Shown: one piece after another, positions 24,790 through 42,870 of the stretch
Layout: each line of letters opens with the position of its first letter
Position numbering within the stretch: position 1 is the stretch's first letter
Origin: an uncultured Mollicutes bacterium
Lineage (GTDB): Bacteria; Bacillota_I; Bacilli_A; RFN20; CAG-826
Length of the DNA: 64,000 nucleotides
Direction: 5' to 3'
Assembly: GCA_900539595.1 (NCBI GenBank)
Contig: UQCQ01000008.1
Span: forward strand, 7,993-71,992
The notes under the pieces: model-generated
Databases searched by the model: none
Told to the model about the DNA's origin: nothing
Seen by the model: the letters and a program-made list of their open reading frames with translations, nothing else
Position numbers and translations under genes: made by a program

Positions 24790-25869
24790 TTAGGCTTGCA
24801 CCCAACGGGCGAAGAGCTTGATATCGCCCCAGACGTTGGTGAGGTCGGTGAATTTACCGGTCGTGGGTTTCACCACATTAGAAGTATACCACCCATCGAA
24901 TTCATAGTTGGGGCGAGATGCTAAAGGAACTTCGATGGATTCGCTGTAGAAATTACGACCCCGTTTGATTTGGATTTGGCTTTGCGCATCGTATAGGAAT
25001 TTCGCATCCGCGGCATTTAAATCAAAGGTGACGGTATAAAGCTGGTTGGATTGATCCGCTAAAGAAATCATAAGTTGCCAACCTTTATCCGCGTCAAAAT
25101 AATAAATCGCGTTGCCATCTTGATCGTAATAGAAATCTCCCGCTTGTCCTTGGCTAGGACGTGGGGCACCTTTGCCAGAAATCCAGCCCGATTGGCGTTT
25201 CAAAACAAAGGATTCGGATTCGCCATTCGAATAATGAAGGGTGACGGTGATATTGCCTTCTTCGTCGGCAGTAGACTCGCTAGAAACAACTCCCGTCCCT
25301 TGGGGGATGACAATAGAATCATCGATGGAGCCATCGCTAAAGGTAATTGTTAAGCGAATGGAACCATCCGCCTGGGTTTGGGAGGCAATGGATTCGATCC
25401 CTTTGCCATCTTTCCCGTCTTGTCCCGGGTCTCCTTTTTCGCCTTTCGACAAAGTGATTTGGTTTTTGTCCGTCGTCCCATCCGTATAATGGATCGTTAA
25501 GGTAATGGAACCATCCTCGTTATAGGTCGGTTCAATATAATCAAGAGATCGGACCGCAGGAACGGTGAAGGAAGTGGATTTGCCATCACTAGTTTTAAAG
25601 GTGATCGTTGTTTCCCCTTTTTCGTTTTTGGTCGCCGTGACTTCGGTAACTCCAATCCCTGCTGGAACGGTAAAGGAGGTCGAGGGTTTATCTTCATTCG
25701 CGTAGATAATCGTGACTAACGTATCCCCGTTTTGAAGGGTCGTGGTATCTACCCGTGAAATCGTGATCGCATCGTCTCCGGAAAAGAAGCCATTGCAGGA
25801 AGTCACTGTTCCTAATACTCCTAAGGCAAGAAAGCTTAGGACCAAATGTTTGAGACTACTTTTTTTCAT
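24790..25869 (-). CDS. Lipoprotein with internal beta-rich repeats and a short collagen-like triplet run
   Basis: The ATG at 25869 is preceded by AAAGGAGAA (the ORF track extends to 25908). Lipobox MKKSSLKHLVLSFLALGVLGTVTSC. Repeats are TITFKTSDGKSTSFTVP, ITLTIHYTDGTTD, IRLTITFSDGSIDDSIVIP and ITVTLHYSNGESESFVL. It also has GEKGDPGQDGKDGKG and a C-terminal YEFDGWY. Confidence 0.75.
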   Translation of the reverse strand: MKKSSLKHLVLSFLALGVLGTVTSCNGFFSGDDAITISRVDTTTLQNGDTLVTIIYANEDKPSTSFTVPAGIGVTEVTATKNEKGETTITFKTSDGKSTSFTVPAVRSLDYIEPTYNEDGSITLTIHYTDGTTDKNQITLSKGEKGDPGQDGKDGKGIESIASQTQADGSIRLTITFSDGSIDDSIVIPQGTGVVSSESTADEEGNITVTLHYSNGESESFVLKRQSGWISGKGAPRPSQGQAGDFYYDQDGNAIYYFDADKGWQLMISLADQSNQLYTVTFDLNAADAKFLYDAQSQIQIKRGRNFYSESIEVPLASRPNYEFDGWYTSNVVKPTTGKFTDLTNVWGDIKLFARWVQA

Positions 25870-25888
25870 ATTCGTTCTCCTTTTGCTT

Positions 25889-28405
25889 TTATAAGGCGCT
25901 TGTCGCATTTTGTTTTAAGGTATCTAGATTTGGGTATTTGCCAAATCGAGATCCCGAAGAATCAAAGAAACCAAACTGGAAGGGAGCAAATCCCGTAACC
26001 ATCGTTACAATCCGGTAGAGAAGATTCCAATAGACTTCTTGGCCTTGTGAAGGACGGTACAAGTAATAATGGACCAAATCGCAATTCTTGATTCCCGCGT
26101 AATGGTCGTTGAAATTCTTCCAACGGTAGGTTTCTACATTGCTTCCATTATATCCGCCTCCATAGAAAGCGATGGGGACAGAGATCGTGCCTTGCTCACT
26201 ATAGACGAGATTTTCGTCTTTGGCTAACTGGGTGAGGACTTCTTTTAACGGGAAGATTGCATCAATCGAGATATCCTTATTGAGCTTATGGATCTTATCT
26301 TTGATTTCATCGGGAAGGATCGAAATTAACCCCGTGAAATCCTGTTGGAGGATGCCGTCTAACACGAAGTCGCTTGGCTTCTTATCATCAAAGAAATCCG
26401 TCTTGCCGATTAAATTTAATTTAGAAGGAGCCATGTTGAAGGCCATGTTTTTAGGAACAAAGGGAACAAGGCTATGTCCGGCCCCGTCGATCGGAGTATT
26501 CAAGGCTTGGATTAAGGTTCCCATTAAAGACGGGGAGAGGTTATATAAGAAAGGGCCATTGAAGGAATTTTCTAAGCCAATCGGCGAGACCCCACTTCGA
26601 TAGAAAAGGGTATCTTCGACTTCTAGACTCGTCGCATAATCATGTAAGCCGGTTTTTGGATGCGAGGCAGATTGCAAAGAGTTGATCGCTCCTTCGGCCG
26701 CGCGGGATTCTGTGGCATCTCCCCCTAAACTCCCTAGATAGCTCGTTAAGACGTCTTGCCCAGGGCCGTTCAGGTAATCGTCATACGCCGCGGATTTTTT
26801 GGAGCCGTCTAGCTGCAAGAACGAAGAGGTGGCATCGGGATCAACGGGAGTCGCCTCATCGCTTCCTAGGGTAAGGCAGAAATTTAAAGCGTCGCTTAAA
26901 AGACAATTCACGATTTTAGAATTCTTCGAAGAGAAGGCGCGGACCACGTTTTTGCCGTTATGGAGTTTGGAATTTCGGATTTCGATGTGGTCGCCATGTA
27001 AATTCATGACGGTTCCTGCGTATTGGAGGAAAGAATAGGAATCTCCATAATCCGCGTTTTTCACGTCGAGGTCGTTCACTAGGATATCGTTTCCATCTAA
27101 ATAGATCCCCGCGTTATCTTCCCCATATAATCCAATTAACGGGAAACGCTTGGGGTCGCCCATGCAGTAAGTAAATAAAGGGCCGCGGAATAAATTGGAG
27201 GTCGTTAAAGAAGGGACGGTCGCGGTTTTCCCGTCACTAGTTACCATCGTGGTCTTGCCATAAGGATAAGCAAGATTATGGAAATTCAGGGTATACCCGT
27301 TCCCATAGAAATCCTTTTGGATACGAAGTCCCGCGTAAAGCGACTTCGAAAGGATCGAATCGCGATATAAGGACGAAGAGGAGGCAAACTCGTTCCAAGC
27401 ATCGATATAAGCCGTGTTGCCCGTCGTCTCATGAGAATAGACTTCGTTTTTGAAGTTCCATTTGGCCGAGCCGTCTTTTTCTTTGCCTAAATAGGTGCCA
27501 AATAAGGCGACGTTATTTTTCTTGGCAACCGGAACTCCATTTTCGAGCTTCATGTTCCCCTTTTCGTCTTTTAAGGCAAAATTATCGAGGGATTCGAAGG
27601 ATTTACGGAGGCAGATGATTTCGCCCTGTTCCGACTGGTTCGAACAGCTTAATAAGGTGGAATAGTCATAGACGTTGATGCCATTTTGAACCACGACAAA
27701 GCTAGTCTTACGGATCTTGCCATGATATTCCAAGGTGAAGAAAGCTTCTTCCAAGGGCTTTTGGATATCTTGAATCTCTACGGTGCCTTTATGGAGGTCC
27801 ACCGAAAGATTGGAACTTGCTTCTTCTAGGCGTAATGCGTTCGTCGTATCCGCGGGGAAGGGGGTAAAGCTATATTCAATCACTGCTTTCTTTTTGTTAG
27901 AACCCGTTCCATCGTATTCCCCATAATAGAGTTTCGAATCAATATTCGCGTTACTAGCTTCTACTTTGGGAGTAACGGTTAATCCATAGGAAGAATAAAA
28001 CACCGCGGTCGTCGTCTTTTTGATCGTTCCCTTCCGGTTCGAGACGCTTAAATAGACGTCTCCTTCTTTAAGAGGCGTTAGATAATAATCGAAATTCCCC
28101 TGGCTATTGATGCGGTCGGAGACCGTTAAGGTGCAATAAACCTCTTCATCGCTCGGATCGACGTTTTCAATCTGCCAAACTAAATCATTCCCATAAGCCA
28201 ACATGCAGGTCTTGTCGTAAATTTGCTCGGCTTCCAGCTTAATGGGCTGGGCCTGGATTTTAAATCCCACCTGGGAAGGATAGTCCCACTCAATATCAAT
28301 CAAATCCTTTTCGATGCGATTAAACCCTCCCGTCGCGGTGCTGACTCCTAAAAAAGCCACGACAAACGGGAAGAGAAGGAGGAAGACTAGATTGCCCTTT
28401 TTCAT
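25889..28405 (-). CDS. Large secreted protein, possibly beta-helix fold
   Basis: 838-aa ORF with N-terminal signal MKKGNLVFLLLFPFVVAFLGVSTATGGF. Repetitive N/G/S-rich segments such as NSKLHNGKNVVRAFSSKNSKIVNCLLSDALNF suggest parallel beta-helix repeats, which is a weak inference. Confidence 0.6.
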   Translation of the reverse strand: MKKGNLVFLLLFPFVVAFLGVSTATGGFNRIEKDLIDIEWDYPSQVGFKIQAQPIKLEAEQIYDKTCMLAYGNDLVWQIENVDPSDEEVYCTLTVSDRINSQGNFDYYLTPLKEGDVYLSVSNRKGTIKKTTTAVFYSSYGLTVTPKVEASNANIDSKLYYGEYDGTGSNKKKAVIEYSFTPFPADTTNALRLEEASSNLSVDLHKGTVEIQDIQKPLEEAFFTLEYHGKIRKTSFVVVQNGINVYDYSTLLSCSNQSEQGEIICLRKSFESLDNFALKDEKGNMKLENGVPVAKKNNVALFGTYLGKEKDGSAKWNFKNEVYSHETTGNTAYIDAWNEFASSSSLYRDSILSKSLYAGLRIQKDFYGNGYTLNFHNLAYPYGKTTMVTSDGKTATVPSLTTSNLFRGPLFTYCMGDPKRFPLIGLYGEDNAGIYLDGNDILVNDLDVKNADYGDSYSFLQYAGTVMNLHGDHIEIRNSKLHNGKNVVRAFSSKNSKIVNCLLSDALNFCLTLGSDEATPVDPDATSSFLQLDGSKKSAAYDDYLNGPGQDVLTSYLGSLGGDATESRAAEGAINSLQSASHPKTGLHDYATSLEVEDTLFYRSGVSPIGLENSFNGPFLYNLSPSLMGTLIQALNTPIDGAGHSLVPFVPKNMAFNMAPSKLNLIGKTDFFDDKKPSDFVLDGILQQDFTGLISILPDEIKDKIHKLNKDISIDAIFPLKEVLTQLAKDENLVYSEQGTISVPIAFYGGGYNGSNVETYRWKNFNDHYAGIKNCDLVHYYLYRPSQGQEVYWNLLYRIVTMVTGFAPFQFGFFDSSGSRFGKYPNLDTLKQNATSAL

Positions 28406-28406
28406 C

Positions 28407-29999
28407 TTAGTTTCCTACCTCCATATCCTCCCAGAGGTTCTTCTTTTGCTTCATAAAATAAAGGACTCCGGGAAAAGAGATTACTAGCAACACGGCAAAG
28501 GCGATTAAATAGATGATTCCTACCGGCAAACGCAAAAACGAGAACAAAGCGGCAATCCCTAAGAATAGGAAAGGGGCCCCATAAGAATATAAAGAAGATA
28601 ATAAGGTAAGGTTCGCTCCCGACCTCGTTTTCTTCATTTCTTCCATTAAGCGAAGCAAGGACAAGGAGAATAAAGCAACTTCCCCAAATAGATAGGCAAG
28701 CCAGGTGGCAGCCGCCCCCAGAACCCCAGTAGAAGAGACCACAATCGAGGTGATGAGGAAGGAAACCGAAGAAGCAAGGAAAGTCGGAGCGAATTTCAAA
28801 ACGAGCTGTTTCATGGGGGAGAAAGGAATCGTTTTTAATATCTTCATCGCTTCCCCTTCTCTCCCAAAATAATCCATGCCCCCACTAGAGACGCAAAGAA
28901 ATAACATCAAAAGGGCAAAGAAATTGATGTAAGTGGCTAGATTGGGGAACGAAACAAAATAATAAGCGACGGTCCCGCTAGAAAAGACGGTATTTAAGGC
29001 ATAGAGGATCGAATAGGCTAGGTACGGGCTTAATAGCAAGAATCCTGCAAAAGAGAATAAACTAGTCGAATCGCGGAAAAGCAAAATGAATTCTTTTTTA
29101 AAATAGGCTTTCTCGGGGCTTAGGGGTTTAAAACGGGTTTTAGGAACTTTTACATGGGCTTTGGCCCCCCCGCCGATATTACGGCTATAGAAAGGAACCG
29201 ATAGCAATAAGCCAAGAATAAAGGCAAAAAGGCTAAAGGCGGCCCATAATAGTAACCCGCTACTAGAACCCGCGAAGAAAAGCTGAACCAAATAATTCGC
29301 GACGATCCAGTATTTACGGTTCGCCACCATCTTGGATAAATTCGCATCGGTCAAGAAGGCGTTGATGCCACTCCCTGAAACCAAAGAAACGAAGACGTCG
29401 AGAAGCTTGGCATAGGCAAAAGCCCCAAGTCCCAAAAGAATAGCAATCACGATAAATTCTAGATAAGGACGGGAAGATAATAATTGCTTCAAATAATGGA
29501 AAGGATAAACCAAGGCTAAGGCTAGGCCCACTTCAAAGAAGAAGGTCGTCAAGGGATAAAAAATCCCCAAGAAATAGAAGAAAACGAGCTTATGGAAGAC
29601 AAGCCCATAAGATAAAAGAACAGGATAAACAAATAAGAAATCGAGTAAATAATGGGAACCAAGCAAGAGAATCAATTTGGAGAATATCTTTTTTGCTGGG
29701 GAAATCGGAAGGATATCCATGTCGCGACGGTCCGATTCATCAAAAAGGAGTTTCTCGGCTTGAAGTAACGAGAATAGAATCGAGAACAAAGAAACGATGA
29801 ATAGAAATAAGGTCGTAAAGCTTAACGAAGCCCCTGGGAAGGAAGATAATTTTGTAAGGATTTCGCGGTACAAATAGCTTTCGACAAAAACTAAAACCCC
29901 AAGGCCAAGCACCAAAAAGAGGACGCGAAGGAAAAGGGAGACTCCTTTTTCTTTGCCTCCTAAAAGCAATTTGATGTCTTTGGCGATGAGATTCAGCAT
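28407..29999 (-). CDS. Polytopic membrane protein, putative ABC-exporter permease partner
   Basis: 530-aa ORF that is almost entirely hydrophobic segments (about 12 or more). Its ATG overlaps the stop of the ABC ATPase gene (TAATG at 29997-30001). Confidence 0.65.
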   Translation of the reverse strand: MLNLIAKDIKLLLGGKEKGVSLFLRVLFLVLGLGVLVFVESYLYREILTKLSSFPGASLSFTTLFLFIVSLFSILFSLLQAEKLLFDESDRRDMDILPISPAKKIFSKLILLLGSHYLLDFLFVYPVLLSYGLVFHKLVFFYFLGIFYPLTTFFFEVGLALALVYPFHYLKQLLSSRPYLEFIVIAILLGLGAFAYAKLLDVFVSLVSGSGINAFLTDANLSKMVANRKYWIVANYLVQLFFAGSSSGLLLWAAFSLFAFILGLLLSVPFYSRNIGGGAKAHVKVPKTRFKPLSPEKAYFKKEFILLFRDSTSLFSFAGFLLLSPYLAYSILYALNTVFSSGTVAYYFVSFPNLATYINFFALLMLFLCVSSGGMDYFGREGEAMKILKTIPFSPMKQLVLKFAPTFLASSVSFLITSIVVSSTGVLGAAATWLAYLFGEVALFSLSLLRLMEEMKKTRSGANLTLLSSLYSYGAPFLFLGIAALFSFLRLPVGIIYLIAFAVLLVISFPGVLYFMKQKKNLWEDMEVGN

Positions 30000-30769
30000 T
30001 ATTTTTCTTTTCCCTCGCTTTCATAGACTTCAAAGAAGGTGCGTTTTAAGCTAAGTCTTGCATTCGGGTTCTTCTTTAAATCGAGCAGTAAAGCAATTTT
30101 GCCATGGTTTAAAATGGCGACGCGGTCGCAGAGTTCACGGACTAAATCGATATTATGGCTGGTTAATAGAACCGTTTGGCCATTATCCGCGTATTCGCGC
30201 ATCATCTTCGTTAATTCTTCTACGGCCATGACGTCAAGGCCGACGGTTGGTTCATCCAAAATCCAAATTTCCGGGCGATGGAGAAGAGAAGCAATTAAGC
30301 AAAGCTTCTGCTTCATGCCGTGGCTATATCCCGAGGTCGGACGGCTCAAGGCTTCTTCGCTTAAATCCAAGCGCTTGGCGAGGTATTTCGCGTTATTAGC
30401 AAAATCGACCTGGGAGACGGAATAAACGGAAGCGATGAAATCTAAATATTCGTATCCCGTCATCGATTCGTAGCAATTGGGTTCACTAGCTACATACCCA
30501 AAATGGGCTTTGGCTTCTAAAGGATGAAGCAAAATATCGTCCCCTAGGATTTTAATTTCGCCGCTTTGGAATTTCTTGCAGCCGATCACGCAATCAATGG
30601 TCGTGGATTTGCCAACGCCGTTTTTCCCTAAAAACCCAAAAACTTCTCCTTTTTTGACTTGGAGATTGAGCCCCTGAATCACTTCTTTTTTGCCGTAGCT
30701 TTTATGAAGTTCATTAATTTCGAGGGCACATTCAGAGGAGGGGAGTTTTTCTAAATGATTGAAATCCAT
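29999..30769 (-). CDS. ABC transporter ATP-binding protein
   Basis: Walker A GKNGVGKST, signature-like YSHGMKQKL and Walker B ILDEPTVGLD. The likely start is ATG 30769 (MDFNHLEK), preceded by AGGAGG and overlapping the upstream stop as TAATG. The ORF track extends to 30802. Confidence 0.9.
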   Translation of the reverse strand: MDFNHLEKLPSSECALEINELHKSYGKKEVIQGLNLQVKKGEVFGFLGKNGVGKSTTIDCVIGCKKFQSGEIKILGDDILLHPLEAKAHFGYVASEPNCYESMTGYEYLDFIASVYSVSQVDFANNAKYLAKRLDLSEEALSRPTSGYSHGMKQKLCLIASLLHRPEIWILDEPTVGLDVMAVEELTKMMREYADNGQTVLLTSHNIDLVRELCDRVAILNHGKIALLLDLKKNPNARLSLKRTFFEVYESEGKEK

Positions 30770-32100
30770 TATTCTTCTTCCTCCTTTTGGCTGATTACCC
30801 ATAAGCGGGTTTGCTTTTTCTTCGTTTGAATAAAGGCGTATTTGCTATGGCAATGGGGACATTCTTTGACATACCCCTCTTCTAGCATCCCCTTTTCTCC
30901 GCATACCGGGCAATAAAGGGAATACAAGGGGATCGAAGCTTCCTTTAATTCTCCTTTGCCTTGGAAAAGACGCTTTAATAACGCTTCTTCTCCATCTTCT
31001 TGGTGAAGAGGAAAATATTTTTTTCTTCCTAGTATCGCCGTATCCCAAATGGAGAGGACATCGATTTCATCGTAAGCAGAAGTTTCTCCCGCGTATTTTC
31101 CTAGGCTAAATCCTTCTAGAGAATCGCTAGCGGTAAATAACAGCAAATATTTGGCCGTCGGATGATCTTCTTTCCCCAGGGGAGTGAGTTCAAAACGCAA
31201 CGCATCGAAATCAACGCGATTGATGACCAATAAGAAATCCGCGGAAATCAAGCGGATGTCTTTGGAATGGGTTAAGAAATCGTTTTTCGAATCCATAGAG
31301 ACGCGGTTGGATTTCGGGCTTAATGCATAACCCGCGTTTAAAAGTAACTTTAAGATATAGCAATAGAAATAGGTGCCCAAATCTTCCGTGGCGCTATGAT
31401 TACGGCCATATTGGCTGATTTCAAGGTAAAAACGGTACACCCGGTGATAGAGGCGGTCCGATTTTAAAATGTTCGTTGGATAAATCCGGGGAAGATTGCA
31501 ATTGGCTTTGGAAACGATTCGGTAGAAATCGCTTTTTTGAATCCTCTCGATTTTACTAAATAAACGGGGAAAGGCGCATAAGGCTTCGTAAGTGCGATCG
31601 CTATCTAAGCTTAATCGAGTCGAATTCACCAAATGGATGCGATTCTCGTAGAAGGCTTTCCGGTGACGTAATTCTTTCTCAATCCGGCGTAAGGCCATCA
31701 CAATGAAAAGGTTCTCGTAGATTAAAATATCGTCTTCGTTTTCTTTGTGATGGACGTATTCCGGTTCCATTCTCCCTGCTTTGTTTTTCCATAAAGCCGG
31801 GTCGCGGAGAGTTTTGGCAAAGGAATCGTTGCTTAAGGAACCCGCCTGATCGGCGCGGAGAATCGTCTCCACGTTTTTGGAGACTACATGGGGCTTATGG
31901 CAGATCGTTTCGATGATTGACAAAATATGAGAGGCTTCCTCGAAGAAGGCAAAGTCTCCCTCGATGAAAGCCCCTTGCAACGATAGAAAGGGGGAAGAAG
32001 AAAGCGAGTCAAAGAACCCGCGGATCGTCGGGCTTGAGCTCTTCAACGAAGCAATATGTGCACTAGCTTCTTGAAGCCGCCTTTCTTCTTCCTTTCTCAT
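30769..32100 (-). CDS. Unknown partner protein with C-terminal double-CxxC zinc ribbon, in the position of a McrC-like partner
   Basis: 443-aa ORF whose C-terminus is YCPVCGEKGMLEEGYVKECPHCHSKY. I could not recognise a clear PD-(D/E)XK motif by eye. It sits immediately downstream of the McrB-like ATPase. Confidence 0.5.
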   Translation of the reverse strand: MRKEEERRLQEASAHIASLKSSSPTIRGFFDSLSSSPFLSLQGAFIEGDFAFFEEASHILSIIETICHKPHVVSKNVETILRADQAGSLSNDSFAKTLRDPALWKNKAGRMEPEYVHHKENEDDILIYENLFIVMALRRIEKELRHRKAFYENRIHLVNSTRLSLDSDRTYEALCAFPRLFSKIERIQKSDFYRIVSKANCNLPRIYPTNILKSDRLYHRVYRFYLEISQYGRNHSATEDLGTYFYCYILKLLLNAGYALSPKSNRVSMDSKNDFLTHSKDIRLISADFLLVINRVDFDALRFELTPLGKEDHPTAKYLLLFTASDSLEGFSLGKYAGETSAYDEIDVLSIWDTAILGRKKYFPLHQEDGEEALLKRLFQGKGELKEASIPLYSLYCPVCGEKGMLEEGYVKECPHCHSKYAFIQTKKKQTRLWVISQKEEEE

Positions 32101-32117
32101 GATAACCCCTTTCTGGA

Positions 32118-34052
32118 CTAAAAGCGACGTAACATTCGTTTAATAGCGTCGCGCGATTGATTGAATTTGTTATCCCCGTATAAGGATGAGATCAAATCGA
32201 GGATATGTTCTAAGCCCGGTTTGACATTATCTTCATAACGCCCTTCGAGTTTGGAGAGGATTTTGCGGGTCAAGAAGAAATCGAGAACCGTTTCTTTCTT
32301 GCCGCCGCAGGCGATAAATACCGGGACCATCTTCTCCATCTGCATGAGGATACGGTTACCAAAGGCGACCCCGAATTCATCATAGACGTAATCGGTGATT
32401 TGCTCGAATTTGGTTTCGTCGGCTTCCGTTAAGGCATAATCCTTATTCGCTTCCGCTTCCTCAAATAAGGCGTGGAGCTTGGAGGCGCTTAAAACGATGG
32501 GTTCGACGTCTTCTTTGGGGGCGAAAGCCGCGTTACGGTTATGGAAGGATAAGGTGATCGCACGGTCATAGACCTTATCGGCAATCGAGAAGGTGGAATC
32601 GTCTTGGTTCGCCGTTCCAATAAAATAGGCAGAACCTGGAATACCCACTTTTCCGTCTTCGAGTTTAGCAGGTCCAACAAACCCGCTGGGGAAATGCATG
32701 ACGCGGATCTTCCATTCGTCTTCGGGATATTCCAAGACAGAGAGGAAATCGGCAAAATAATATTCGACGCGGGAGATATTCATTTCATCCAAAACGAAGA
32801 GATAAATCCGGTCCGGGTTGTAATTGGCTTCATAAAGATTCATCAAGAAGTCCGTCTCGCGGTAAGTTTTGGAGAAATCGTTAAAATAACCAATCAAGGC
32901 CGTTTTATCTCTCCAAGTCGCTTGGACAGGAACGAAGACCGAGACGCCTCCTACGAATTTAGCAAAGCTACGGGGGAGGGAGGATTTCCCCGTTCCCGAT
33001 AAGCCTTCTAGAATTTCTAGATGGGAAGCGGCTAGACCTGCCACAAAGAAACGAAGGGTGTCGGTATCGTAATAGAGTTTTTCTTTTCCCGCTAAGAAAG
33101 AACGGAATTTGGTGATTAATTCGGGCAAAGCGATATCATCCCCATGGATCGATTCAATCGCATAGCCTTCATAATGCTTATCGATTTTGCATAAAGAGGG
33201 GAAGACGATTTCTCTTTCTGCAAGGGCTTCGGCAGCGGCGCCACTTCCGGCTCCCCCAGCTCCTCCGCCTTCAACATTTTCGGCAGAGATTTGGCTCGAG
33301 ACGCTTTGGAAGCCGTTATTTCCTTCTTCTCCCATCCCTTTGGCCACATCTTCATTTCGGTCTTCTTCTTCTAAAGAATCGCCCACTTTAGCAAACGGCT
33401 TACCAAGATGAACGAAGTTGACTAAGCAAAGAAGAACGGCAGAAATCAAAACGGCGAAGAAAAGATAAAGCAATAAGCTGATTAAGAGGGATTCGCCAAG
33501 GAACGTCATGGCGTTGCCTAGATTCTCTTTGCTGTGGGGGACTTGGAGGAGTAAACCAAATCCAACGGAAAGAGCAAGGCAGACTAGTAAAGTCCCTACA
33601 TACCAAAGCCAATTCTTCTTCGCGTACCACTTCTTGCCGTCGAGAATCGCGTGACGGTATTCAAAGATAAAGGCAAAGACGAAAAGGCTGATAAAAATGG
33701 CGACGAGAACATTTAACGTCTGTCCGCCCATATGGGCGTTAATCGCGGGTAATCCTAGGCTTTGACGGAGCAAGGCAATCGGGTTTTTCGAGGAAACAAT
33801 GCTCGATTCCCCTTCTCCGTGCACGGTGATGCAGATCCCGACGAAAATCATTAAGAAGGTGAAGAACATCGATAACCCGATGGAAATTAGATTTCCGCGG
33901 GTAAGATATTCCCTTCGAATTCCTTTCGTTGGCTTTTCTTTACTCTCGGGGGCTTTGGGAGCTTCAGGCTCTGAAGTGGAATTCGCGGTTAACGAATCCA
34001 TCCCGAGGTTTTCATTTTCTTGAATGTCCATGGGGGTATTCCTTTCATTCAT
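32118..34052 (-). CDS. Membrane-anchored AAA+ protein with McrB-like (AAA_5) NTPase domain
   Basis: At least 4 N-terminal TM helices (LISIGLSMFFTFLMIFVGICITV, LNVLVAIFISLFVFAFIF, WLWYVGTLLVCLALSVGFGLLL, LLISLLLYLFFAVLISAVLLCLVNFV) and a G/A-rich linker. Walker A is GLSGTGKSS. The Walker B region LFVLDEMNISRVEYYFADFLSVLE and FIGTANQDD match the McrB/AAA_5 pattern. The start is uncertain (ATG 34052, 34031 or 34103); 34052 overlaps the sipW stop. Confidence 0.7.
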   Translation of the reverse strand: MNERNTPMDIQENENLGMDSLTANSTSEPEAPKAPESKEKPTKGIRREYLTRGNLISIGLSMFFTFLMIFVGICITVHGEGESSIVSSKNPIALLRQSLGLPAINAHMGGQTLNVLVAIFISLFVFAFIFEYRHAILDGKKWYAKKNWLWYVGTLLVCLALSVGFGLLLQVPHSKENLGNAMTFLGESLLISLLLYLFFAVLISAVLLCLVNFVHLGKPFAKVGDSLEEEDRNEDVAKGMGEEGNNGFQSVSSQISAENVEGGGAGGAGSGAAAEALAEREIVFPSLCKIDKHYEGYAIESIHGDDIALPELITKFRSFLAGKEKLYYDTDTLRFFVAGLAASHLEILEGLSGTGKSSLPRSFAKFVGGVSVFVPVQATWRDKTALIGYFNDFSKTYRETDFLMNLYEANYNPDRIYLFVLDEMNISRVEYYFADFLSVLEYPEDEWKIRVMHFPSGFVGPAKLEDGKVGIPGSAYFIGTANQDDSTFSIADKVYDRAITLSFHNRNAAFAPKEDVEPIVLSASKLHALFEEAEANKDYALTEADETKFEQITDYVYDEFGVAFGNRILMQMEKMVPVFIACGGKKETVLDFFLTRKILSKLEGRYEDNVKPGLEHILDLISSLYGDNKFNQSRDAIKRMLRRF

Positions 34053-35169
34053 AATCTTTCGTCGTATCTTGGATTTCTTCTTCGTTATTTTGTTCTTCTT
34101 CATAACTTGAAGTATCCATGAGTTCTTCTTCTTGAATCGGGGTTTCCCCCATCAAGAAGCTAGAGGAGGTTTCTTGGCCGTTAGAAGTGACGACCTTTTT
34201 GAGGTTATTGCCGCTTCCAGGGGCTACTTCTTTAGAGAGGAAGCCCGTTTCATTGAAGTGATAGGCGTAGCCTCCGTAATAGATCGTCTCGCGGAAAGCA
34301 GAGCTTAGATTCTTCGGGTCTTTTTTGACGGAGACCGAATCCACAATCTCCGATAATTTTTGGACCCGTTCTTCTTCCGCCTTGTCGATTTTTCCCGCGA
34401 GGTAATTAAACATCAAGATGCTATAGGCCACGGAGAGAATCGTGATGATGCCGTGGGGGGATTGGAAGAACATGACTAACATTCCAATTCCTTGGATCTT
34501 CTTCCCGTTATAGACGCCTTTGATGTCGTCTAGGGTGGCGTAATACTGTTCTTGGCCGGCGTTATCTGTGGCGTTATTGGCATCTCCCCGGGTCACGTAA
34601 CGGGTCACCCCATCCGATCCGGTTTTGATATCAATCACGCGGTGGATATAAATCGCATTCGCCGCGGGATTCCGGTTATAGAAGGCGACGACATCATAGA
34701 GGTGGATGTCGCTAGCGTCATGAACCTTCGTCACGAAGATCATGTCGTATTGGGCGAATTGATTGTCTAACGTATAGGTCTTTTGCTTCTCTTCGTCGAA
34801 TAAATAGCTATTCGCGTCGTTTTTAAAGCTCATGGAGCCGGAAGCAACGACTAACATCGATTCGTTCCCAAATCCCGTTAGATTCCCTTGGGCTTTATTG
34901 ATTAGAGCGAAGGCGAACGCGGGGGTAATTAAGGCTAAGAAACCATAGAACAATACGTTAGAGATGATGGTTCCGGCTTTCTTCCGTCGCTTGGCTTTGA
35001 CGTCCTGCTCGGTGATTTCCCGGTCAATGAGTTCGATGTCGCGTTTTCCTTCTTTCGTCTCCTTCACGTTGGCTTTGACGTATTTGCCAAATAGGATCGT
35101 GAAGACGGCGCAGAAGCTCACTACACCCAGCAAACTCATCACCAGGCTGATGATGTCCGCGGATTTCAT
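34045..35169 (-). CDS. sipW: Signal peptidase I, archaeal/ER (SipW) type, with long C-terminal extension
   Basis: 374-aa ORF with catalytic-type motifs VVASGSMSF (Ser), IYIHRVID (His) and TRGDANNATD (Asp). It has TM helices at the N-terminus and after the catalytic domain, plus an acidic ~130-aa tail. Confidence 0.75.
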   Translation of the reverse strand: MKSADIISLVMSLLGVVSFCAVFTILFGKYVKANVKETKEGKRDIELIDREITEQDVKAKRRKKAGTIISNVLFYGFLALITPAFAFALINKAQGNLTGFGNESMLVVASGSMSFKNDANSYLFDEEKQKTYTLDNQFAQYDMIFVTKVHDASDIHLYDVVAFYNRNPAANAIYIHRVIDIKTGSDGVTRYVTRGDANNATDNAGQEQYYATLDDIKGVYNGKKIQGIGMLVMFFQSPHGIITILSVAYSILMFNYLAGKIDKAEEERVQKLSEIVDSVSVKKDPKNLSSAFRETIYYGGYAYHFNETGFLSKEVAPGSGNNLKKVVTSNGQETSSSFLMGETPIQEEELMDTSSYEEEQNNEEEIQDTTKDYE

Positions 35170-35171
35170 GA

Positions 35172-35966
35172 TTAATTGATCTCCGCGGTGAGAATCGCCG
35201 TAAAACTTAATTCCGGCAGGTCTTTTTCATCAGTTGGATAAGGTCCCGTAAAGTCTTTCCCATAATGGAGGAGAGTTGTGAATTTCTTCATCTCTTCTCG
35301 CATTTTTTCATCGGGGATCGAAGCCCCTCCTTTAGGACCAGCGTCATCATAATAAATGGAGGGTTTCATATGATTGAATTTATCACCCCATCTAAACCCG
35401 AGGGTTACATCAAAGGATTTAGAATCATTGGCGGTGTCAAGCGCCCCAAGAGGAATCTCTACCGGCGTATTGATATAATCCGTCGAATTATTAATCGGCT
35501 CCAGTTCGATATAGCCAGCTTCTATCGCATCTAAAATCGGATTGCCCTTATATCCCGTATAGGCCGTCGCGGTTTGTAACTGCAACGTGACTCTTGAGAT
35601 ATAAGTCCAGGGCATGACGTTGCCCTGAATGCGGACGGTTAGATGTTCATAGAGGTGCTTCCCATCATCGAAATAACGGAAGCGACCCGTGTTATCATCT
35701 TTCGGCGCATCAAAACAAATGGTGTTATACAAATCGTCGTTGGTGGCCTTATAGAAATCGGTGAGTTGGCCTCCATCTGTCGATTCAAAACGGACTTTTG
35801 CGTCTTGGATGACACCGATATGGGCGTTGCCGCCACTAGAGGCCGAGGCGGAACTCGTAACGACGAAAGCCGCCGCTCCAACGGAGCAAAGCGAAACCAC
35901 GGCGAAAACGGAGACACCGAGTGTCACCATTTTCTTGGTCTGTTTCTCCATCTTGGAGCGGCGCAT
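35172..35966 (-). CDS. Secreted paralog family protein 4 (SipW-class-like signal)
   Basis: 264-aa ORF with ...VVSLCSVGAAAFVVTSSASAS. It shares the family motif LGFRWGDKFNHMKPSIYYD. Confidence 0.75.
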   Translation of the reverse strand: MRRSKMEKQTKKMVTLGVSVFAVVSLCSVGAAAFVVTSSASASSGGNAHIGVIQDAKVRFESTDGGQLTDFYKATNDDLYNTICFDAPKDDNTGRFRYFDDGKHLYEHLTVRIQGNVMPWTYISRVTLQLQTATAYTGYKGNPILDAIEAGYIELEPINNSTDYINTPVEIPLGALDTANDSKSFDVTLGFRWGDKFNHMKPSIYYDDAGPKGGASIPDEKMREEMKKFTTLLHYGKDFTGPYPTDEKDLPELSFTAILTAEIN

Positions 35967-36011: not shown

Positions 36012-36863
36012 TTAGGCGGCGGAGCCGGCAGTGTCAGCTTTGATAATAACGGCGAAATTCATCGTGGTGAAATCAGTGGCCGGAGCGGCGGCTGCTTCAC
36101 CAGGTTTATATTCAATTCCTGTCATTGCGTAATAGAAGTTGCCGAGATCGGTTTTGAAGGTACTATCGTTGTAATCCTTCTTGCCAGTATCGGAGTCATA
36201 GAATTCGGACGGATTCAAATTCTTTTTTGTAGTTCCGTCGTAAAAATGGCTGCCCCATTCAAAGGAAATCGTATAAGCAAATTCCGCAACACCGTCCGCG
36301 CCAACAGTAATCGTTCCGTTGCCATCGTTCGAAGTAAATGCGGCTCCTTTGGTATTGAAGGTCACACCATCACCACCCTTAGTCCCGCCAGCCCAGCAAG
36401 CGGGAAGTTTAATGTAATTGCTGACATTGGCAGCGTCTTCAATACGTTTTTCAGCAGCGGTATCAACCACAAAGTTGCCTGCCGTATCAACGGTTCCCAT
36501 ATGGAGCCCAATGGAGAAATTGTTGACATAGGAAGCCGGTTTGTATTTGCCGGTTACAACAAGCGAAAGATTCTCATAATGGTCTTTGCCGTCATAACGA
36601 ACGCGTCCGGAAAGGTCGGTCTTAACGGGTTCAAACGAGAAATAATCGCGAGTACCGTCAACTTCCTTGAATTTGACTTCGGTGATTTCAATCGACTTTT
36701 CGGAAATGGTACCAACGTTAACGTTTCCTTGGACGTTTTTGGTCGCAGAGCTGGAGATAACCCAGGCTGCAAACCCAGTTGCAACAAGAGCAATGCCCGC
36801 AAAGGCGGTGGCTCCAACAACCATCGCCTTGCGTTGGTAGGATTTTCTAGTTAATTTAGCCAT
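36012..36863 (-). CDS. Secreted paralog family protein 3 (SipW-class-like signal)
   Basis: 283-aa ORF with ...GIALVATGFAAWVISSSAT. Family motif ISFEWGSHFYDGTTKKNLNPSEFYD. Confidence 0.8.
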   Translation of the reverse strand: MAKLTRKSYQRKAMVVGATAFAGIALVATGFAAWVISSSATKNVQGNVNVGTISEKSIEITEVKFKEVDGTRDYFSFEPVKTDLSGRVRYDGKDHYENLSLVVTGKYKPASYVNNFSIGLHMGTVDTAGNFVVDTAAEKRIEDAANVSNYIKLPACWAGGTKGGDGVTFNTKGAAFTSNDGNGTITVGADGVAEFAYTISFEWGSHFYDGTTKKNLNPSEFYDSDTGKKDYNDSTFKTDLGNFYYAMTGIEYKPGEAAAAPATDFTTMNFAVIIKADTAGSAA

Positions 36864-36884: not shown

Positions 36885-37640
36885 TTATTTACGATCAACG
36901 CGAATGGTGAGGGTGAATTTGTTTTGTTGGATTTTGGCCAATTTATCAAGAGAAGCAAACGCGTCATCAGCCCAAGAAGAGACTCCTTCAGCAAGCGTAG
37001 CCTTCCCAGTGTTATCCGCACCGTCAGTAGAAACGGTGTTGTAGAACTCATAGGGGTTCTTGGCCACGCCATCGATTTCGAAGTGTTTGCCCCATTTAAA
37101 CGTGACATTCATGGAAACGGTAACGGCACCAGTAGTTCCATTGAATGTATATTCGCCGTTTTCTGGTGCAAACGTAATGACAGGCGCGGTCACCAATTCG
37201 GCGTTGACGGCATCGGTCCAAGCAGCGGAGGCTTCCCACACATCACCAGTCACGTCGGCCTTCTTTGCTTCTACCTTGAAATCTTTGGCATTATCGCAAG
37301 CCACTTTGATTGTTCCGGTGTCTTTAGTATCTTTCGTTTTAACGGTGAAGGTGAATGTGTCTTCCAATTGTTCTGATGGAACTCCTTCGAAGCTGAACCA
37401 GGGCTTTTCAGCCGAAACGGTTCCGCCTTTTCCGAAAACAACATTCCCTTTCGCGGCATTGGCCGTCGTCCATTTGCCACCTTCAACGGACAAACGATGG
37501 TCGACCACGTCATAAGCGGTAATAAGTCCATCCGCAGAAGCGGTGGTATTCGCCGAGATAACCCAGCCTGCAAAGCCGGTACCGATGAGAGCCATGGATC
37601 CGAGGCTAGCCACGGCCATGATCATTGCTTTTTTCTTCAT
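36885..37640 (-). CDS. Secreted paralog family protein 2 (SipW-class-like signal)
   Basis: 251-aa ORF with ...SMALIGTGFAGWVISANT. Family motif VTFKWGKHFEIDGVAKNPYEFYN. Confidence 0.8.
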   Translation of the reverse strand: MKKKAMIMAVASLGSMALIGTGFAGWVISANTTASADGLITAYDVVDHRLSVEGGKWTTANAAKGNVVFGKGGTVSAEKPWFSFEGVPSEQLEDTFTFTVKTKDTKDTGTIKVACDNAKDFKVEAKKADVTGDVWEASAAWTDAVNAELVTAPVITFAPENGEYTFNGTTGAVTVSMNVTFKWGKHFEIDGVAKNPYEFYNTVSTDGADNTGKATLAEGVSSWADDAFASLDKLAKIQQNKFTLTIRVDRK

Positions 37641-37692: not shown

Positions 37693-38442
37693 TTACTCCG
37701 CCGAAACGGTGAAGGATAGGGCGAACTTGACGTTAGCACCCAAATTCTTTAATTCACCAATTTTTTGAGTGGCATCTGCTTGAAGATCAGCGGTATAAGG
37801 CTTCGAATTGTAATATTTATACGGGTTTTGGTAATCGAAGTATTTACCCCAAGCAAAATTGATAGAAATGGTGAAGGACATTTCGGTCGCCTTACTGTCA
37901 ACGCTGGCAGTAGCTACGCCGTCAGCGCACGTAAACGCCGTCCCTGAAGTTTTCGCAAGTTTGATATCGCCATGTCCGGCGGTAGCGGCTACGTTATTGT
38001 TGAACGCTGGCAAAGTGCCCAATTGATTTTGACCACCATTTGATAAAGCACTATAGTTCGTCCCACCATCTTTTTCCGCCAACGTAACGCCATAAACTTT
38101 AATTGTGGTTACATTGCTAATGCCCAAATTTACGGTGTAAACGGCCGTAAGGTCCTCTTCGCCGTTTTCATTATTAGCTCCAAGCCAGTTGTAGGTTTCC
38201 TTGGTGATTTTTGGAGCGAAGCAAATGGCGCCATTCGTCGCGGCATCCGATTCCAGTCCAAAACCAGAGGTTTCTTTAATGGATATGGACTTAGACGTAA
38301 CATTTCCATCCGCGGTGATAGAACCATTCCCTTCTTTCGTTTGAGGTTGTGCCGAGATAATCCACCCTGCAAAGCCGGTGGAAATCACGCCGATGGACCC
38401 TAGCAGGGAAATGCCTGCTACAGCCATTTTTTTGTTTTTCAT
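37693..38442 (-). CDS. Secreted paralog family protein 1 (SipW-class-like signal), first gene of the cluster
   Basis: 249-aa ORF with ...SIGVISTGFAGWIISAQP. Family motif INFAWGKYFDYQNPYKYYN. Confidence 0.8.
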   Translation of the reverse strand: MKNKKMAVAGISLLGSIGVISTGFAGWIISAQPQTKEGNGSITADGNVTSKSISIKETSGFGLESDAATNGAICFAPKITKETYNWLGANNENGEEDLTAVYTVNLGISNVTTIKVYGVTLAEKDGGTNYSALSNGGQNQLGTLPAFNNNVAATAGHGDIKLAKTSGTAFTCADGVATASVDSKATEMSFTISINFAWGKYFDYQNPYKYYNSKPYTADLQADATQKIGELKNLGANVKFALSFTVSAE

Positions 38443-40235: not shown

Positions 40236-40811
40236 CTCTTGTTTATCACCCCACTGATTTTTATCGCCCCGGGGTGATAAAAATCAATTCATCTCCCGTT
40301 GCTAGTTAAAAAATGATGTGAAACGCTTTAAGCGTTTGGGACCTCCTCGTCTCCCCCGGATCGTTCATCGACTTAGCCAGCTTTTCAAACTCCGCCCCAT
40401 TCGGAGGTTTCGTATTAAGCGCCATTTCGGGTATCCCGTCACCCTGTAAAATGCCCCCCTAGTCACACCTAGCCTTTCTCTAGTGGCGATTTTCGAAGGT
40501 AATTTCTTTGCCACTTTTCGATTAAATATCCATCGTCATCCCTCTTCGTTTTCTTGGTCGAAGACATTATAGGCGAGATGTCTTTTCCGTTCCCCGCCAT
40601 CCTTGGCTCTTATCCAAGGGTTTTGGGATCCGTTATTCTCCTCCGATTTTGTTTCACATCATTTGATATTGATATAGAACACCTTACTTTCGCAGTAAGG
40701 GTTTTCTCACAATCCATTCGTTTACTCGTAATTTTGCTACGATTTTTTGAGAAAACCATTCTTTTTTGGATATTCTTGATCCTAAAAATCTCTATGGTTG
40801 ATGTTATAGGG

Positions 40812-40838
40812 TCGGCTTTTTAGGCCTGTTTAGAGGGG
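40812..40838. repeat. 27-bp direct repeat, copy 2
   Basis: Identical to 39561-39587. Confidence 0.9.
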
Positions 40839-41023
40839 TGAATAGCAAATGAACGCTTACGTTCCCGAACTTTCCCCCAATCAGCAATCACAACACGCCC
40901 AGTCTCATCCGCTACCTCATCGGAATGGGATGAGGTATATGCCATACTCATCCTATCTACATCAGAGATGGATGAACCTTAAAGTGGTACTACCGGTACT
41001 TTTCGGTACCCATTTTTAAGCGT

Positions 41024-41489
41024 TTAATCCTTAACTATCCAATACCCCGCTTTGTTTGAACCGATTCTTTCGATGCGTCCAGCAGCCCTAAGATACTCGA
41101 TGTTGTTTTGAACTGCGGTGATGCTTATCCCAAGAATCACCGAGAACTAAGCTGAGGTTATGTTCGGATTGTTTCTGACCTCAGACAGAATTTTTTTCGG
41201 TTGGGTGTTATCTTGGTATCGGTTTTATTACCAACTTTATTATCAACCGCACATGATCAAAAAGTTGGGTATAAATTTGCCTTTTAGCGCATTCCCCATT
41301 CGAAATCTTTTTAACATTACACTTCGCTTTAAAGGAGCGTGGACAAAAAGCCGGACCATGAAAGGAAGGAATGCCGTGGCTCAGTTTTTGGTCCGTACTT
41401 CCATTCTTTATAGGGTCTAATAGGCTTATTGGCGATATTCCTTCCTCAAAAATAAGGATGGAGCAAGAAAAAGTCTTGAACCGTGGCAC
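41024..41489 (-). pseudogene. Disrupted 3' fragment of a COG2865-like regulator gene (frameshift plus in-frame TAG)
   Basis: My minus-strand reading gives ...IPNFLIMCG (frameshift) VDNKVGNKTDTKITPNRKKILSEVRNNPNITSA-stop(41146-41148)-FSVILGISITAVQNNIEYLRAAGRIERIGSNKAGYWIVKD-stop. It is collinear with the 42099..42608 fragment. Confidence 0.6.
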
Positions 41490-41538
41490 GAGCAGGGCTT
41501 ATTCGTTTTTCCCTTTGATGAAATAAAAGCCTTTTTTT

Positions 41539-41778
41539 CTAGGCACCTAGGAATTCGATGTAATGATGCAATTTTCTTTTGATATTGTTTTTCAAGATAT
41601 CCAACGCAACTTCAGGCTGCTTTTCTTTGATTAGGTTAAGTAGATTTTTTGTGCTGATTCCTGGGTTTTGCTGTATTGCTTGTAGAATCAGTAATTCTAA
41701 GTCCCCCAGTCTATCATCCTCGATTTTTACAGGGTCATTTACAGGGTCAACATAATTTTGGTTCGGCAATGTCAGCAT
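41539..41778 (-). pseudogene. Short wHTH-only fragment related to COG2865-like regulator C-termini
   Basis: 79-aa ORF with a VDPVNDPVK repeat linker followed by LELLILQAIQQNPGISTKNLLNLI. Confidence 0.45.
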
Positions 41779-42098
41779 GAAGAAATTACCGCTTGGATTA
41801 AAAACAGGCTGTTTATCGGCACCTTCCTACGCCTGAAGGATTCTAGGGATGCCCGTATTTATATCTTGTTCCTTCTATTTAAATGACGGGAAACAAAGTC
41901 GAAGGGAGCGGAAAACCAGAAACCCCCGACGATAAGCAGCGGGAAAAGGAAAGGGCGCCTCGCCTATATTGTTTTCGACCAAGAAAGCGAAGGAAGGTGC
42001 CAATGGATATTGTAACCGAAAACGGCAACAAAACTGATGTGCGATGTGAGTGGGGCAAGGCGCCCCAAACCCTTAAAGTGTTTCGTGCCATCCGCCAA

Positions 42099-42608
42099 CT
42101 AACATTTCCAATAACTGGACTTATTCGATCCGACTCTTTCGATATACCCTTTCTTCTTGAGAACAGAAATTATATTGTCCACAGATGTCTTTCCGAGATT
42201 ACAGGCCATCATAAGCTGCGGTTTTGTGATATTCGGATTGTTCCGTATCTCGGCGAGCACCCTGGTTTGGGAATCGTTGAGAGTTTTATCACCCACTTTA
42301 TCACCCACTTTATCACCCACTTTATCACCCACCTCGTTGATGAAGTTGAATGGGATGGTGACGGTAATGTCGTTGTCGGAGAAATCAAACGCCCCTTCGC
42401 CGTATTCGGATGAAATCACAGGAATTCCCCTTCCTGTTTTCTCACTGATGTGCAGTTGCAGAAATATTTCCGATAGCTTTGCGTTCACAGGGACAGAATG
42501 GCCGCGAAAGAAACCGGTTTTTGTCTGCAATGGCGCCAAGCCTCCTCTTGAGAGTATCTCGATCCTGTCGGAATAAATGGTAATCATTGGTTCATTGCCA
42601 TCCATCAA
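42099..42608 (-). pseudogene. N-terminally truncated COG2865-like regulator (HATPase_c_4 tail + (GDKV)4 linker + wHTH)
   Basis: 169-aa ORF: ...IEILSRGGL...EKTGRGIPVI...NEVGDKVGDKVGDKVGDKTLNDSQTRVLAEIRNNPNITKPQL...KKKGYIERVGSNKSSYWKC. It lacks the AlbA_2 N-terminal half present in the 471- and 480-aa paralogs. Confidence 0.65.
42285..42332 (-). repeat. Perfect 4 x 12-nt tandem repeat inside a coding sequence (encodes GDKV x4)
   Basis: The + strand reads TTTATCACCCAC four times. Confidence 0.95.
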
Positions 42609-42870
42609 TTTATTCGGAAGGAAAGCACCTTATTTTCCGGATTTTCCTAGCATAAAAACTATCATTCGAAGACTGTCCTTTGTTGATTGTGCGATAGATA
42701 GTTCCAATTGCCTTATTTCGTCGGCTTAAATGTACAGAAACATTAAAGGTATTCACTGCTTAGAATAAAGCATTCACGTTCTTTCTTTTTTAGGATTACC
42801 AACTAACTCGGCACGTCAAGTTTTCACATTGTCGAATATAAATTCCGAACGAGACTCTATTCAGGAAGCA

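Follow-up and report, generated by a model that had tools for sequence, protein, structure and literature searches.

We analysed a window of 64,000 nt from an uncultured Mollicutes bacterium (GenBank assembly GCA_900539595.1, contig UQCQ01000008.1, forward-strand positions 7,993 to 71,992). It harbours a membrane-anchored, McrB-like nucleoside triphosphatase (NTPase) and a McrC-like partner with no recognisable nuclease, encoded between the genes of a SipW-like signal peptidase and of an ATP-binding cassette (ABC) transporter ATPase. The whole operon is a head-to-tail array on the minus strand, and coordinates are given as positions in the window. The pair is a fixed member of this conserved operon, not a stray restriction system. 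We favour, with moderate confidence, the view that it forms a non-defence module functionally tied to SipW-dependent surface-protein biogenesis, and the task of the pair is probably to power or control the export or assembly of proteins, not to cut DNA. The first-pass annotation of the sequence had left two options, a repurposed McrBC-like engine serving the SipW substrates or a membrane-tethered restriction or abortive module. The former is favoured by the collinearity of the pair with sipW and the secreted-protein genes and by fusions of McrC N-terminal domains to SipW in a sister family. The latter is disfavoured by the lack of a nuclease in the conserved cluster, the lack of relatives in viral contigs and the fixed gene order.

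We performed synteny analyses on 85 loci, i.e. 80 species genomes and 5 metagenome or metagenome-assembled genome (MAG) contigs, searched by tblastn with the window proteins. All of them display the same order on one strand, namely secreted paralogues, sipW, NTPase, partner, ABC ATPase, 12TM_1 permease, a protein of ~830 residues and a lipoprotein. Only four depart from strict adjacency, and the gene absences are accounted for by contig ends. The sipW gene was detected in 82 loci and directly precedes the NTPase gene in 78 of the 85. It was undetected in three loci, at contig ends, and is displaced in four (L070, L073, L078 and L079). In L073, L078 and L079, ~2.5 kb are inserted between sipW and the NTPase gene, and in L070 sipW sits between the NTPase and partner genes. 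Homologues of the secreted proteins are encoded upstream of sipW in most loci. Homologous pairs travel with sipW and the genes for proteins with GFAGW-type signals, and their partners are devoid of a nuclease. The first-pass annotation had named the opposite pattern, with pairs mostly in defence islands and an intact McrC nuclease, as grounds for rejecting its reading.

The genes are also tightly packed, most intergenic distances being between -8 and +17 nt. In the window, the sipW stop and the NTPase start overlap by 8 nt (ATGAATGA) if translation of the NTPase starts at Met18 (34052). A spacer of 17 nt, with the ribosome-binding site inside, separates the NTPase and partner genes, and the partner stop overlaps the ABC ATPase start as TAATG. 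Both overlaps had been read correctly in the first-pass annotation, the former holding with the Met18 start. The partner-ABC ATPase junction measures -4 to +6 nt in most loci. The NTPase family comprises at least 2336 clusters at 90% identity, and relatives are present in at least 561 GTDB species genomes, all of them gut or rumen MAG lineages of Bacilli and Clostridia. The Bacilli carriers include RF39/Acholeplasmatales-like bacteria, Ca. Enteromonas and Ca. Onthovivens, and the Clostridia carriers include Christensenellaceae-like bacteria and others. No relatives were found in 2.9 million viral contigs, and plasmids yielded no close copies, only distant relatives of the CoCoNuT type.

The longest open reading frame (ORF) of the NTPase, 34103-32118, does code for the 661 residues originally attributed to the protein, but the true start is likely Met18 at 34052. 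The resulting product (32118-34052) has 644 residues, which is the length of a 99%-identical database protein (P0001), and this start yields the overlap with sipW. The N-terminal part is an anchor of four transmembrane (TM) helices (33408-33899), followed by a linker rich in Gly, Ala and acidic residues. At least four N-terminal TM helices and a Gly/Ala-rich linker had been proposed, and hydropathy and the AlphaFold2 model agree with this. In the numbering of the 644-residue protein, the Kyte-Doolittle hydrophobic segments span residues 52-81, 108-137, 148-174 and 180-221. The model, with a mean predicted local distance difference test (pLDDT) score of 74, has long TM helices at 52-75, 108-137, 145-168 and 175-215 and a short helix at 91-98 in the first outside loop. 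Four to five hydrophobic segments are found in 84 of the 85 NTPase orthologues. The disordered linker (residues 217-275; 33228-33404), with pLDDT <50 and a variable alignment, joins the anchor to an AAA+ domain of ~365 residues. Based on the positive-inside rule, the topology is predicted to be N-in/C-in, with the NTPase domain in the cytoplasm. In this predicted topology, the basic loop RHAILDGKKWYAKKNW is on the cytoplasmic side of the anchor, and the first outside loop harbours a conserved KNP motif. Pfam detected no DivIC, FtsB or FtsL match in the protein.

The NTPase domain harbours a Walker A motif (GLSGTGKSS, 32979-33005), a Walker B motif (VLDEMN, 32778-32795) and the McrB signature at sensor-1 (NQDD, i.e. 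N-x-D-(D/E), 32598-32609). All three are near-invariant among the orthologues, 83 of 85 having the motif GTAN[KRQN]D[DE]S, and NQDD aligns with NTAD of E. coli McrB. The NxD branch of the McrB GTPases is defined by NxD followed usually by Glu or a second Asp (PMC11090510). Since the N-x-D-(D/E) signature fits this definition, we assign the window NTPase to the NxD branch of the McrB type, and it is probably a GTPase. The only sequence matches in the PDB are to E. coli McrB (E 1e-3 for the single sequence, E 0.04 for the profile), and NCBIfam gave a weak McrB match. The domain is 36-40% identical (E down to 2e-60) to plasmid-encoded CoCoNuT-type GTPases of Deinococcus, Polaromonas and Nostoc. 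These plasmid proteins have long coiled coils, the motif GTANHDE, an AAA_5 match above cutoff and DUF2357 partners with or without PDDEXK_7. In the window protein, the DNA-binding N-terminal domain of McrB is replaced by the four-helix membrane anchor.

An exhaustive search with the NTPase domain collected 8090 representatives at E<=1e-3, among them 718 at E<=1e-30. The N-x-D-(D/E) signature is present in all those of the top-150 relatives for which the motif search gave a match. The NxD relatives show three architectures: multi-pass proteins with 4-12 TM helices, to which the window protein belongs, proteins of ~460-580 residues with 1-2 TM helices and a short coiled coil, and soluble proteins of 700-870 residues with long coiled coils, of the CoCoNuT type. 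The membrane module appears highly variable in this clade, since P0155 (812 residues), P0281 (901 residues) and P0166 (841 residues) have either bigger membrane domains, in which 11-12 TM segments are predicted, or long N-termini of low complexity. In the plasmids of Deinococcus, Polaromonas and Nostoc (loci L086, 856-10266; L087, 913-10023; L088, 748-10171), the soluble GTPase is part of a five-gene cluster. The genes code, in this order, for a protein kinase (annotated in L087 and L088, hypothetical in L086), a MkoA-like helicase, a protein of ~480 residues, the coiled-coil NxD GTPase and a DUF2357 protein. This cluster is probably a CoCoNuT type II/III system.

The partner (443 residues, 30769-32100) occupies the McrC position. 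It had been described as ending in CPVCG...CPHCH and showing no nuclease motif, and both features hold. It matches Pfam DUF2357 (PF09823) with 29.7 bits against a gathering score of 23.3, and the same domain is precomputed for nine of 11 partner homologues. This McrC N-terminal (DUF2357/'MN') domain spans residues ~50-262 (31315-31953). An hhalign comparison with DUF2357 McrC/CnuC-like proteins of CoCoNuT-like loci aligned residues 55-262 (probability 98.7, E 1.6e-16). Two of the comparison proteins also have PDDEXK_7, and the alignment ends where their nuclease core starts. The invariant motifs of the partner are LWK, PEYV, IYEN.F and TNIL..D..Y..VYRFY. Among 83 orthologues, positions conserved at >=85% occur only in residues 41-225 and in the zinc ribbon (393-421), and residues 226-392 hold none.

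The zinc ribbon itself (YSLYCPVCG...CPHCHSKY, 30838-30924) is conserved as YCPxC...CPxC...Y in 83 of 84 orthologues, with its four Cys at 99%. The sole orthologue without a ribbon (L010, 8141-9451) has a Pro/Leu/Gly-rich C-terminus, and the loss looks like a frameshift or an assembly error rather than a real variant. The AlphaFold2 model of the partner (pLDDT 77) shows an alpha/beta domain within residues 226-392 that could be a decayed nuclease fold. Foldseek searches of the PDB with this model returned nothing below E 0.04 and no nuclease. Pfam gave no PDDEXK match for the partner, whereas control CnuC proteins do match PDDEXK_7, and neither Pfam nor PADLOC detected a nuclease in the NTPase/partner pair. 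In sum, the activator half of the partner resembles McrC, no active nuclease is recognisable, and the C-terminus is a zinc ribbon.

The peptidase gene immediately upstream (34045-35169) codes for an archaeal/endoplasmic reticulum (ER)-type signal peptidase of 374 residues. It matches TIGR02228 at E 7e-13, its 48.7 bits being just under the cutoff of 51.85, and a SipW model at E 1.7e-10. The catalytic residues Ser112, His176, Asp196 and Asp202 are conserved in 100% of 79 orthologues, and the enzyme is predicted to be catalytically intact. It has three TM segments, including an extra N-terminal one, together with a strongly charged loop on the cytoplasmic side (residues 32-66) and an acidic cytoplasmic C-terminal tail of ~115 residues in which Arg268, Leu272 and Tyr303 are conserved among the same orthologues. 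SipW of B. subtilis, at ~190 residues, is about half as long and is not known to have these extensions.

Upstream of sipW are the genes of four paralogous secreted proteins with SipW-type signals: a 249-residue protein (37693-38442, signal STGFAGWI), a 251-residue protein (36885-37640, signal GTGFAGWV) with the C-terminal motif WG..F...NP..YY, a 283-residue protein (36012-36863, signal ATGFAAWV) and a 264-residue protein (35172-35966, signal SVGAAAFV). The TasA signal ends in TWA/AF, which resembles GFA/GW of the window proteins in its small-aromatic-Ala-x-aromatic pattern. A fifth secreted protein (218 residues, signal STGFAAWV, 21232-21888, minus strand) is encoded ~13 kb downstream of the other four, past a surface protein of 955 residues. 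The SipW regulon probably reaches at least position 21232, because this protein is encoded there.

The class of NxD relatives with 1-2 TM helices constitutes a sister family of at least 8000 clusters, mostly from Oscillospiraceae, Ruminococcus and other Clostridia. Its loci have the order EAL protein, membrane or secreted protein of ~240 residues, SipW, GTPase and DUF2357 protein. P0188 and similar proteins have a coiled coil in addition to 1-2 TM helices, and they match FtsL_2 faintly. In two Ruminococcus/Clostridia metagenome loci (L091, 12181-15114; L093, 11665-14616), DUF2357 proteins of 977 and 983 residues are fused to a complete SipW peptidase. The fusions are composed of McrC-N, a charged coiled coil of ~380 residues, a TM helix, the SipW-type peptidase domain and a second TM helix. 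The peptidase domains score 87-88 bits with TIGR02228, against the cutoff of 51.85, and harbour SGSM, HR and GDAN motifs. Judging from the domain order, the fusion puts the peptidase in the place of McrC's nuclease. L091 and L093 also carry a second, free-standing SipW gene upstream of the GTPase gene. Genes for EAL-domain proteins, i.e. cyclic di-GMP (c-di-GMP) phosphodiesterases, are found in or beside the sister clusters (L091, 7587-8342; L092, 11524-12636; L093, 7745-8503), which we take to point to surface or biofilm biology.

Based on its sequence features, the sister family matches the definition of CoCoPALM, a system to which Bell et al. (eLife 2024) gave a name in a single paragraph, deferring its description to a future publication (PMC11090510). 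There, the CoCoPALM GTPase is fused to an FtsB-like TM segment plus a coiled coil, and the system is associated with the signal-peptidase family (PMC11090510). In our literature searches, the name appears only in that paper and its preprint, with no follow-up, and the text of the supplement has no CoCoPALM entries; pairing 'SipW' with 'McrB' returned strain genotypes only. The first-pass annotation knew of no description of a membrane-tethered module of this kind; the general kind does have a name, but the one-paragraph naming is not accompanied by a published description.

We propose the following mechanism, of which any particular mechanical detail commands much less confidence than the module as a whole. 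According to the summary of Niu et al. 2020 given by Bell et al., the McrC N-terminal domain plugs the pore of the McrB hexamer and activates hydrolysis (PMC11090510). By analogy, six NTPase subunits would form a ring under the membrane, held by 24 TM helices in all, and the N-terminal domain of the partner would thread the pore of the ring and stimulate GTP hydrolysis. Trp104 and Lys105 of the partner are candidates for the basic activating finger that would contact the NxD aspartate. The complex would dock onto SipW, which would stand where McrBC has its nuclease as the effector. Hydrolysis would then gate the cleavage of the signal peptides of the GFAGW-signal subunits, or couple it mechanically to their release or polymerisation, and the end product might be a surface fibre or an adhesin layer. 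If cleavage occurs after GFA, by analogy with TWA/AF in TasA, the new N-terminus would be GWVIS..., which could plausibly act as a donor strand, and the subunit would then join a growing surface polymer. Both the 838-residue protein and the ABC transporter are specific to this variant and probably serve later export or anchoring steps. SipW is favoured as the functional target because it is common to both families and because the sole fusion joins McrC-N to SipW. As a possible and tentative extension, the McrBC architecture of a ring, a pore-threading activator and an effector may have been rebuilt with a signal peptidase as the effector, giving a cytoplasmically energised machine that couples cleavage to fibre assembly in Gram-positive and wall-reduced gut Firmicutes. 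Such a machine would amount to a class of secretion or assembly apparatus that had not been recognised before, with the window form as its most elaborate version.

Several points weigh against a role of the pair in surface-protein biogenesis. The McrBC clade is overwhelmingly devoted to defence. SipW-dependent fibres of the TasA type assemble extracellularly and are not known to need cytoplasmic energy, and the NTPase is therefore not obviously needed. The four secreted paralogues have no similarity to TasA, camelysin/Peptidase_M73, the NCBIfam models of SipW-cognate proteins or solved proteins, and we infer their fibre nature. Hexamer formation, GTP specificity and the contact with SipW are predictions. 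The zinc ribbon of the partner could bind nucleic acid, and the model of the partner does not match the McrC structure by Foldseek. As for the NTPase, PADLOC matches it to the candidate-defence profile PDC-M26A at E 6e-47. Of the McrB/AAA_5 pattern first assigned to it, the McrB part is borne out by the sequence, the NxD motif and the relatives, but Pfam AAA_5 is not matched directly. In Foldseek searches with the full-length model, McrB is absent from the top 50, where MCM, RavA/MoxR, Lon and NorQ are ranked. Nevertheless, the Foldseek E-values of the NTPase model are ~1e-3 or worse and correspond to generic AAA+ folds. We consider this ranking uninformative rather than contradictory, and our McrB assignment draws on sequence and context, not on fold ranking. 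Lastly, we found no published experiment on NxD-branch McrB homologues or on CoCoPALM (PMC11090510).

The alternative that survives best, although we regard it as unlikely, is a regulatory switch acting on another target, with SipW left untouched: the pair would control the ABC exporter, or the zinc ribbon would bind nucleic acid to tune the expression of the operon. The overlap of the partner stop with the ABC ATPase start and the short junction between these genes in most loci are consistent with this idea, as are the invariance of the ribbon and the restriction of the ABC/12TM_1 module to the multi-pass family, its sister family being devoid of it. Nevertheless, it is SipW and not the ABC transporter that both families have in common, the sole domain fusion found joins McrC-N with SipW, and no helix-turn-helix or other DNA-binding domain was detected.

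We consider it quite improbable that the pair is a membrane-tethered defence or abortive-infection module, in which the ring would sense phage DNA entry or envelope damage and act via another protein of the operon by blocking secretion or permeabilising the membrane, or that the whole cluster is a conflict system. Descent from the McrBC clade argues for such a role, and so do the nearest annotated relatives, which are plasmid CoCoNuT-type systems beside helicases and kinases. Bell et al. met such systems in a census of type IV restriction (PMC11090510), and the ribbon might bind nucleic acid. The PADLOC match was rejected as evidence of defence: all the NxD GTPases tried match the PDC-M26A profile, with E-values of 1e-32 to 1e-47, and because they score similarly the match holds at the level of the clade only. 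The partner has no PADLOC match, so that only the A component of the PDC-M26 system is present, and no literature on 'PDC-M26' was found. Furthermore, nuclease, HEPN and other toxin domains are absent from all the conserved genes, and the family is missing from viral contigs and plasmids. The fixed order in 85 loci from two bacterial classes and the translational coupling to sipW and the ABC transporter contrast with the patchy, modular make-up of defence islands.

That the NTPase is a MoxR/RavA-like AAA+ chaperone maturing or inserting an exported protein, with an unrelated adaptor as its partner, is very improbable. Foldseek does place RavA, NorQ and CHU_0153, which are of the MoxR type, among the best matches, with McrB outside the top 50. 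However, these E-values are weak and generic, the sequence matches in the PDB are to McrB only, and the N-x-D-(D/E) signature is invariant. The partner is a DUF2357/McrC-N protein rather than a vWA protein with a metal-ion-dependent adhesion site (MIDAS), and the nearest relatives are the CoCoNuT McrB homologues. The weakest alternative is that chance placed an ordinary type IV restriction system between sipW and the ABC transporter gene. McrB/McrC ancestry is its only support, and we give it a negligible probability: it is refuted by the recurrence of this arrangement in all 85 loci, which come from at least 80 species, there is no nuclease, and a membrane anchor stands in place of the DNA-binding domain.

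The remainder of the operon lies downstream of the partner gene. It starts with an ABC transporter ATPase of the DrrA/ABC-2 type (29999-30769), which is found in 85 of 85 loci. Next are genes for a permease-like polytopic membrane protein of 530 residues (28407-29999), whose orthologues have Pfam 12TM_1 (82/85), and for an exported protein of 838 residues (25889-28405; 76/85) with an N-terminal signal or anchor, which belongs to no known family. A probable lipoprotein of 372 residues with a Listeria-Bacteroides/Flg_new-type repeat (24790-25908; 66/85), so called from its N-terminal sequence, follows. The less conserved cargo further downstream (21232-24752) comprises the 955-residue surface protein (Flg_new_2) and the fifth signal-bearing protein. 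The small secreted proteins, the 838-residue protein and the permease of the window have no matches in Pfam, NCBIfam or the PDB. The promoters and terminators predicted by a scan of the operon were no more numerous than in shuffled sequence and gave no information on the operon boundaries, and neither a riboswitch nor another Rfam family was found upstream of the operon.

Elsewhere in the window, the stretch 40236-42870 has short ORFs only, one of which (41883-42413, plus strand) ends in a tandem HFIT repeat (HFITHFITHFITHL), and it may be non-coding or decayed sequence. A c-di-GMP-I riboswitch (61697-61774, minus strand; Rfam RF01051, 55.7 bits against a gathering score of 35) is directly upstream of ORFs of 300 (61688-60786) and 1346 (60789-56749) residues, neither of which has a Pfam match. 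They may represent another, c-di-GMP-controlled surface-protein operon. A gene at 4057-6717 (minus strand) codes for a bifunctional aldehyde/alcohol dehydrogenase of the AdhE type (Aldedh and Fe-ADH), consistent with the ordinary fermentative metabolism of an anaerobic gut Firmicute.

Among GTP-driven restriction enzymes, McrBC is the textbook example. In the operon described here, the motor and the activator persist without any nuclease, anchored in the membrane and locked in a signal-peptidase operon whose carriers are mostly uncultured. If the module powers or gates SipW processing, it would represent a clear case of a defence machine turned to cell-surface biogenesis. It would also supply an energy source for SipW-type fibres and give a role to ~ten conserved 'hypothetical' genes, which probably count among the main surface determinants of abundant gut bacteria. 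Through the McrC-N::SipW fusions of the sister family, the hypothesis can be tested directly.

Four known systems share parts of this organization. The tapA-sipW-tasA and sipW-bsaA operons of Bacillus and Clostridium also have an archaeal/ER-type signal peptidase beside paralogous exported proteins. Their substrates belong to the TasA/camelysin family (Peptidase_M73) and make up donor-strand fibres, unlike the paralogues of the window, which have no match to that family. We know of no NTPase, McrC-like protein or ABC transporter in operons of the tapA-sipW-tasA type. Canonical McrBC of E. coli (PDB 6HZ4, 6UT6, 7VSR) shares with the window pair an AAA+ NTPase with the McrB signature at sensor-1, a partner with the McrC N-terminal domain, and the gene order. 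Nevertheless, the E. coli enzyme differs in the NxxD motif and the N-terminal DNA reader of McrB and in the active PD-(D/E)xK nuclease of McrC. Both the reader and the nuclease are absent from the window pair, and the similarity of the window NTPase to E. coli McrB is very weak (E 1e-3). With a TM anchor instead of a DNA reader, no nuclease and a fixed context, the pair does not correspond to a canonical type IV restriction system.

CoCoNuT (CnuB/CnuC), for which RNA targeting is predicted (PMC11090510), is closer, as it also combines an NxD-(D/E) GTPase with a DUF2357 partner. CnuC likewise shows zinc ribbons and inactivated or absent PD-(D/E)xK domains (PMC11090510). However, the GTPases of CoCoNuT are soluble proteins that have long coiled coils and lack TM segments, whereas the window GTPase is membrane-anchored and devoid of a coiled coil. 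CoCoNuT systems always include a nuclease of the HEPN or PD-(D/E)xK type, and frequently helicases as well (PMC11090510), in contrast with the conserved cluster of the window, which has neither coiled coil nor nuclease. They also occur on plasmids, unlike the window family.

The closest likeness is to CoCoPALM, which has an NxD-branch, membrane-anchored McrB-like GTPase and a McrC-N (DUF2357) partner without an active nuclease. Its SipW-type peptidase is encoded immediately upstream, preceded by small exported proteins, as in the window, and the GTPase domains of the two types are ~41% identical. The anchors differ, being a multi-pass domain of 4-5 helices with a disordered Gly/Ala/acidic linker in the window and a single FtsB-like TM segment with a coiled coil in CoCoPALM. 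Coiled coils are usual in CoCoPALM, the sister partners having ~380 residues of charged coiled coil, but neither window protein has a long, charged helical segment. The window partner is short (~430 residues) and harbours a zinc ribbon with neither a long coiled coil nor a peptidase fusion, unlike partners of the CoCoPALM type. The ABC ATPase, the 12TM_1 permease, the ~830-residue exported protein and the lipoprotein are obligatory in the window family and absent from CoCoPALM-type loci. The secreted substrates belong to different families in the two types, and the EAL gene adjacent to CoCoPALM-type loci is not part of the window cluster. The window system is a multi-pass, coiled-coil-free, ABC-linked variant of CoCoPALM. 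We call it a variant because the FtsB-like anchor and the coiled coils are missing, and because a zinc-ribbon partner and a module made up of the ABC transporter, the 12TM_1 permease, the 838-residue protein and the lipoprotein are added.

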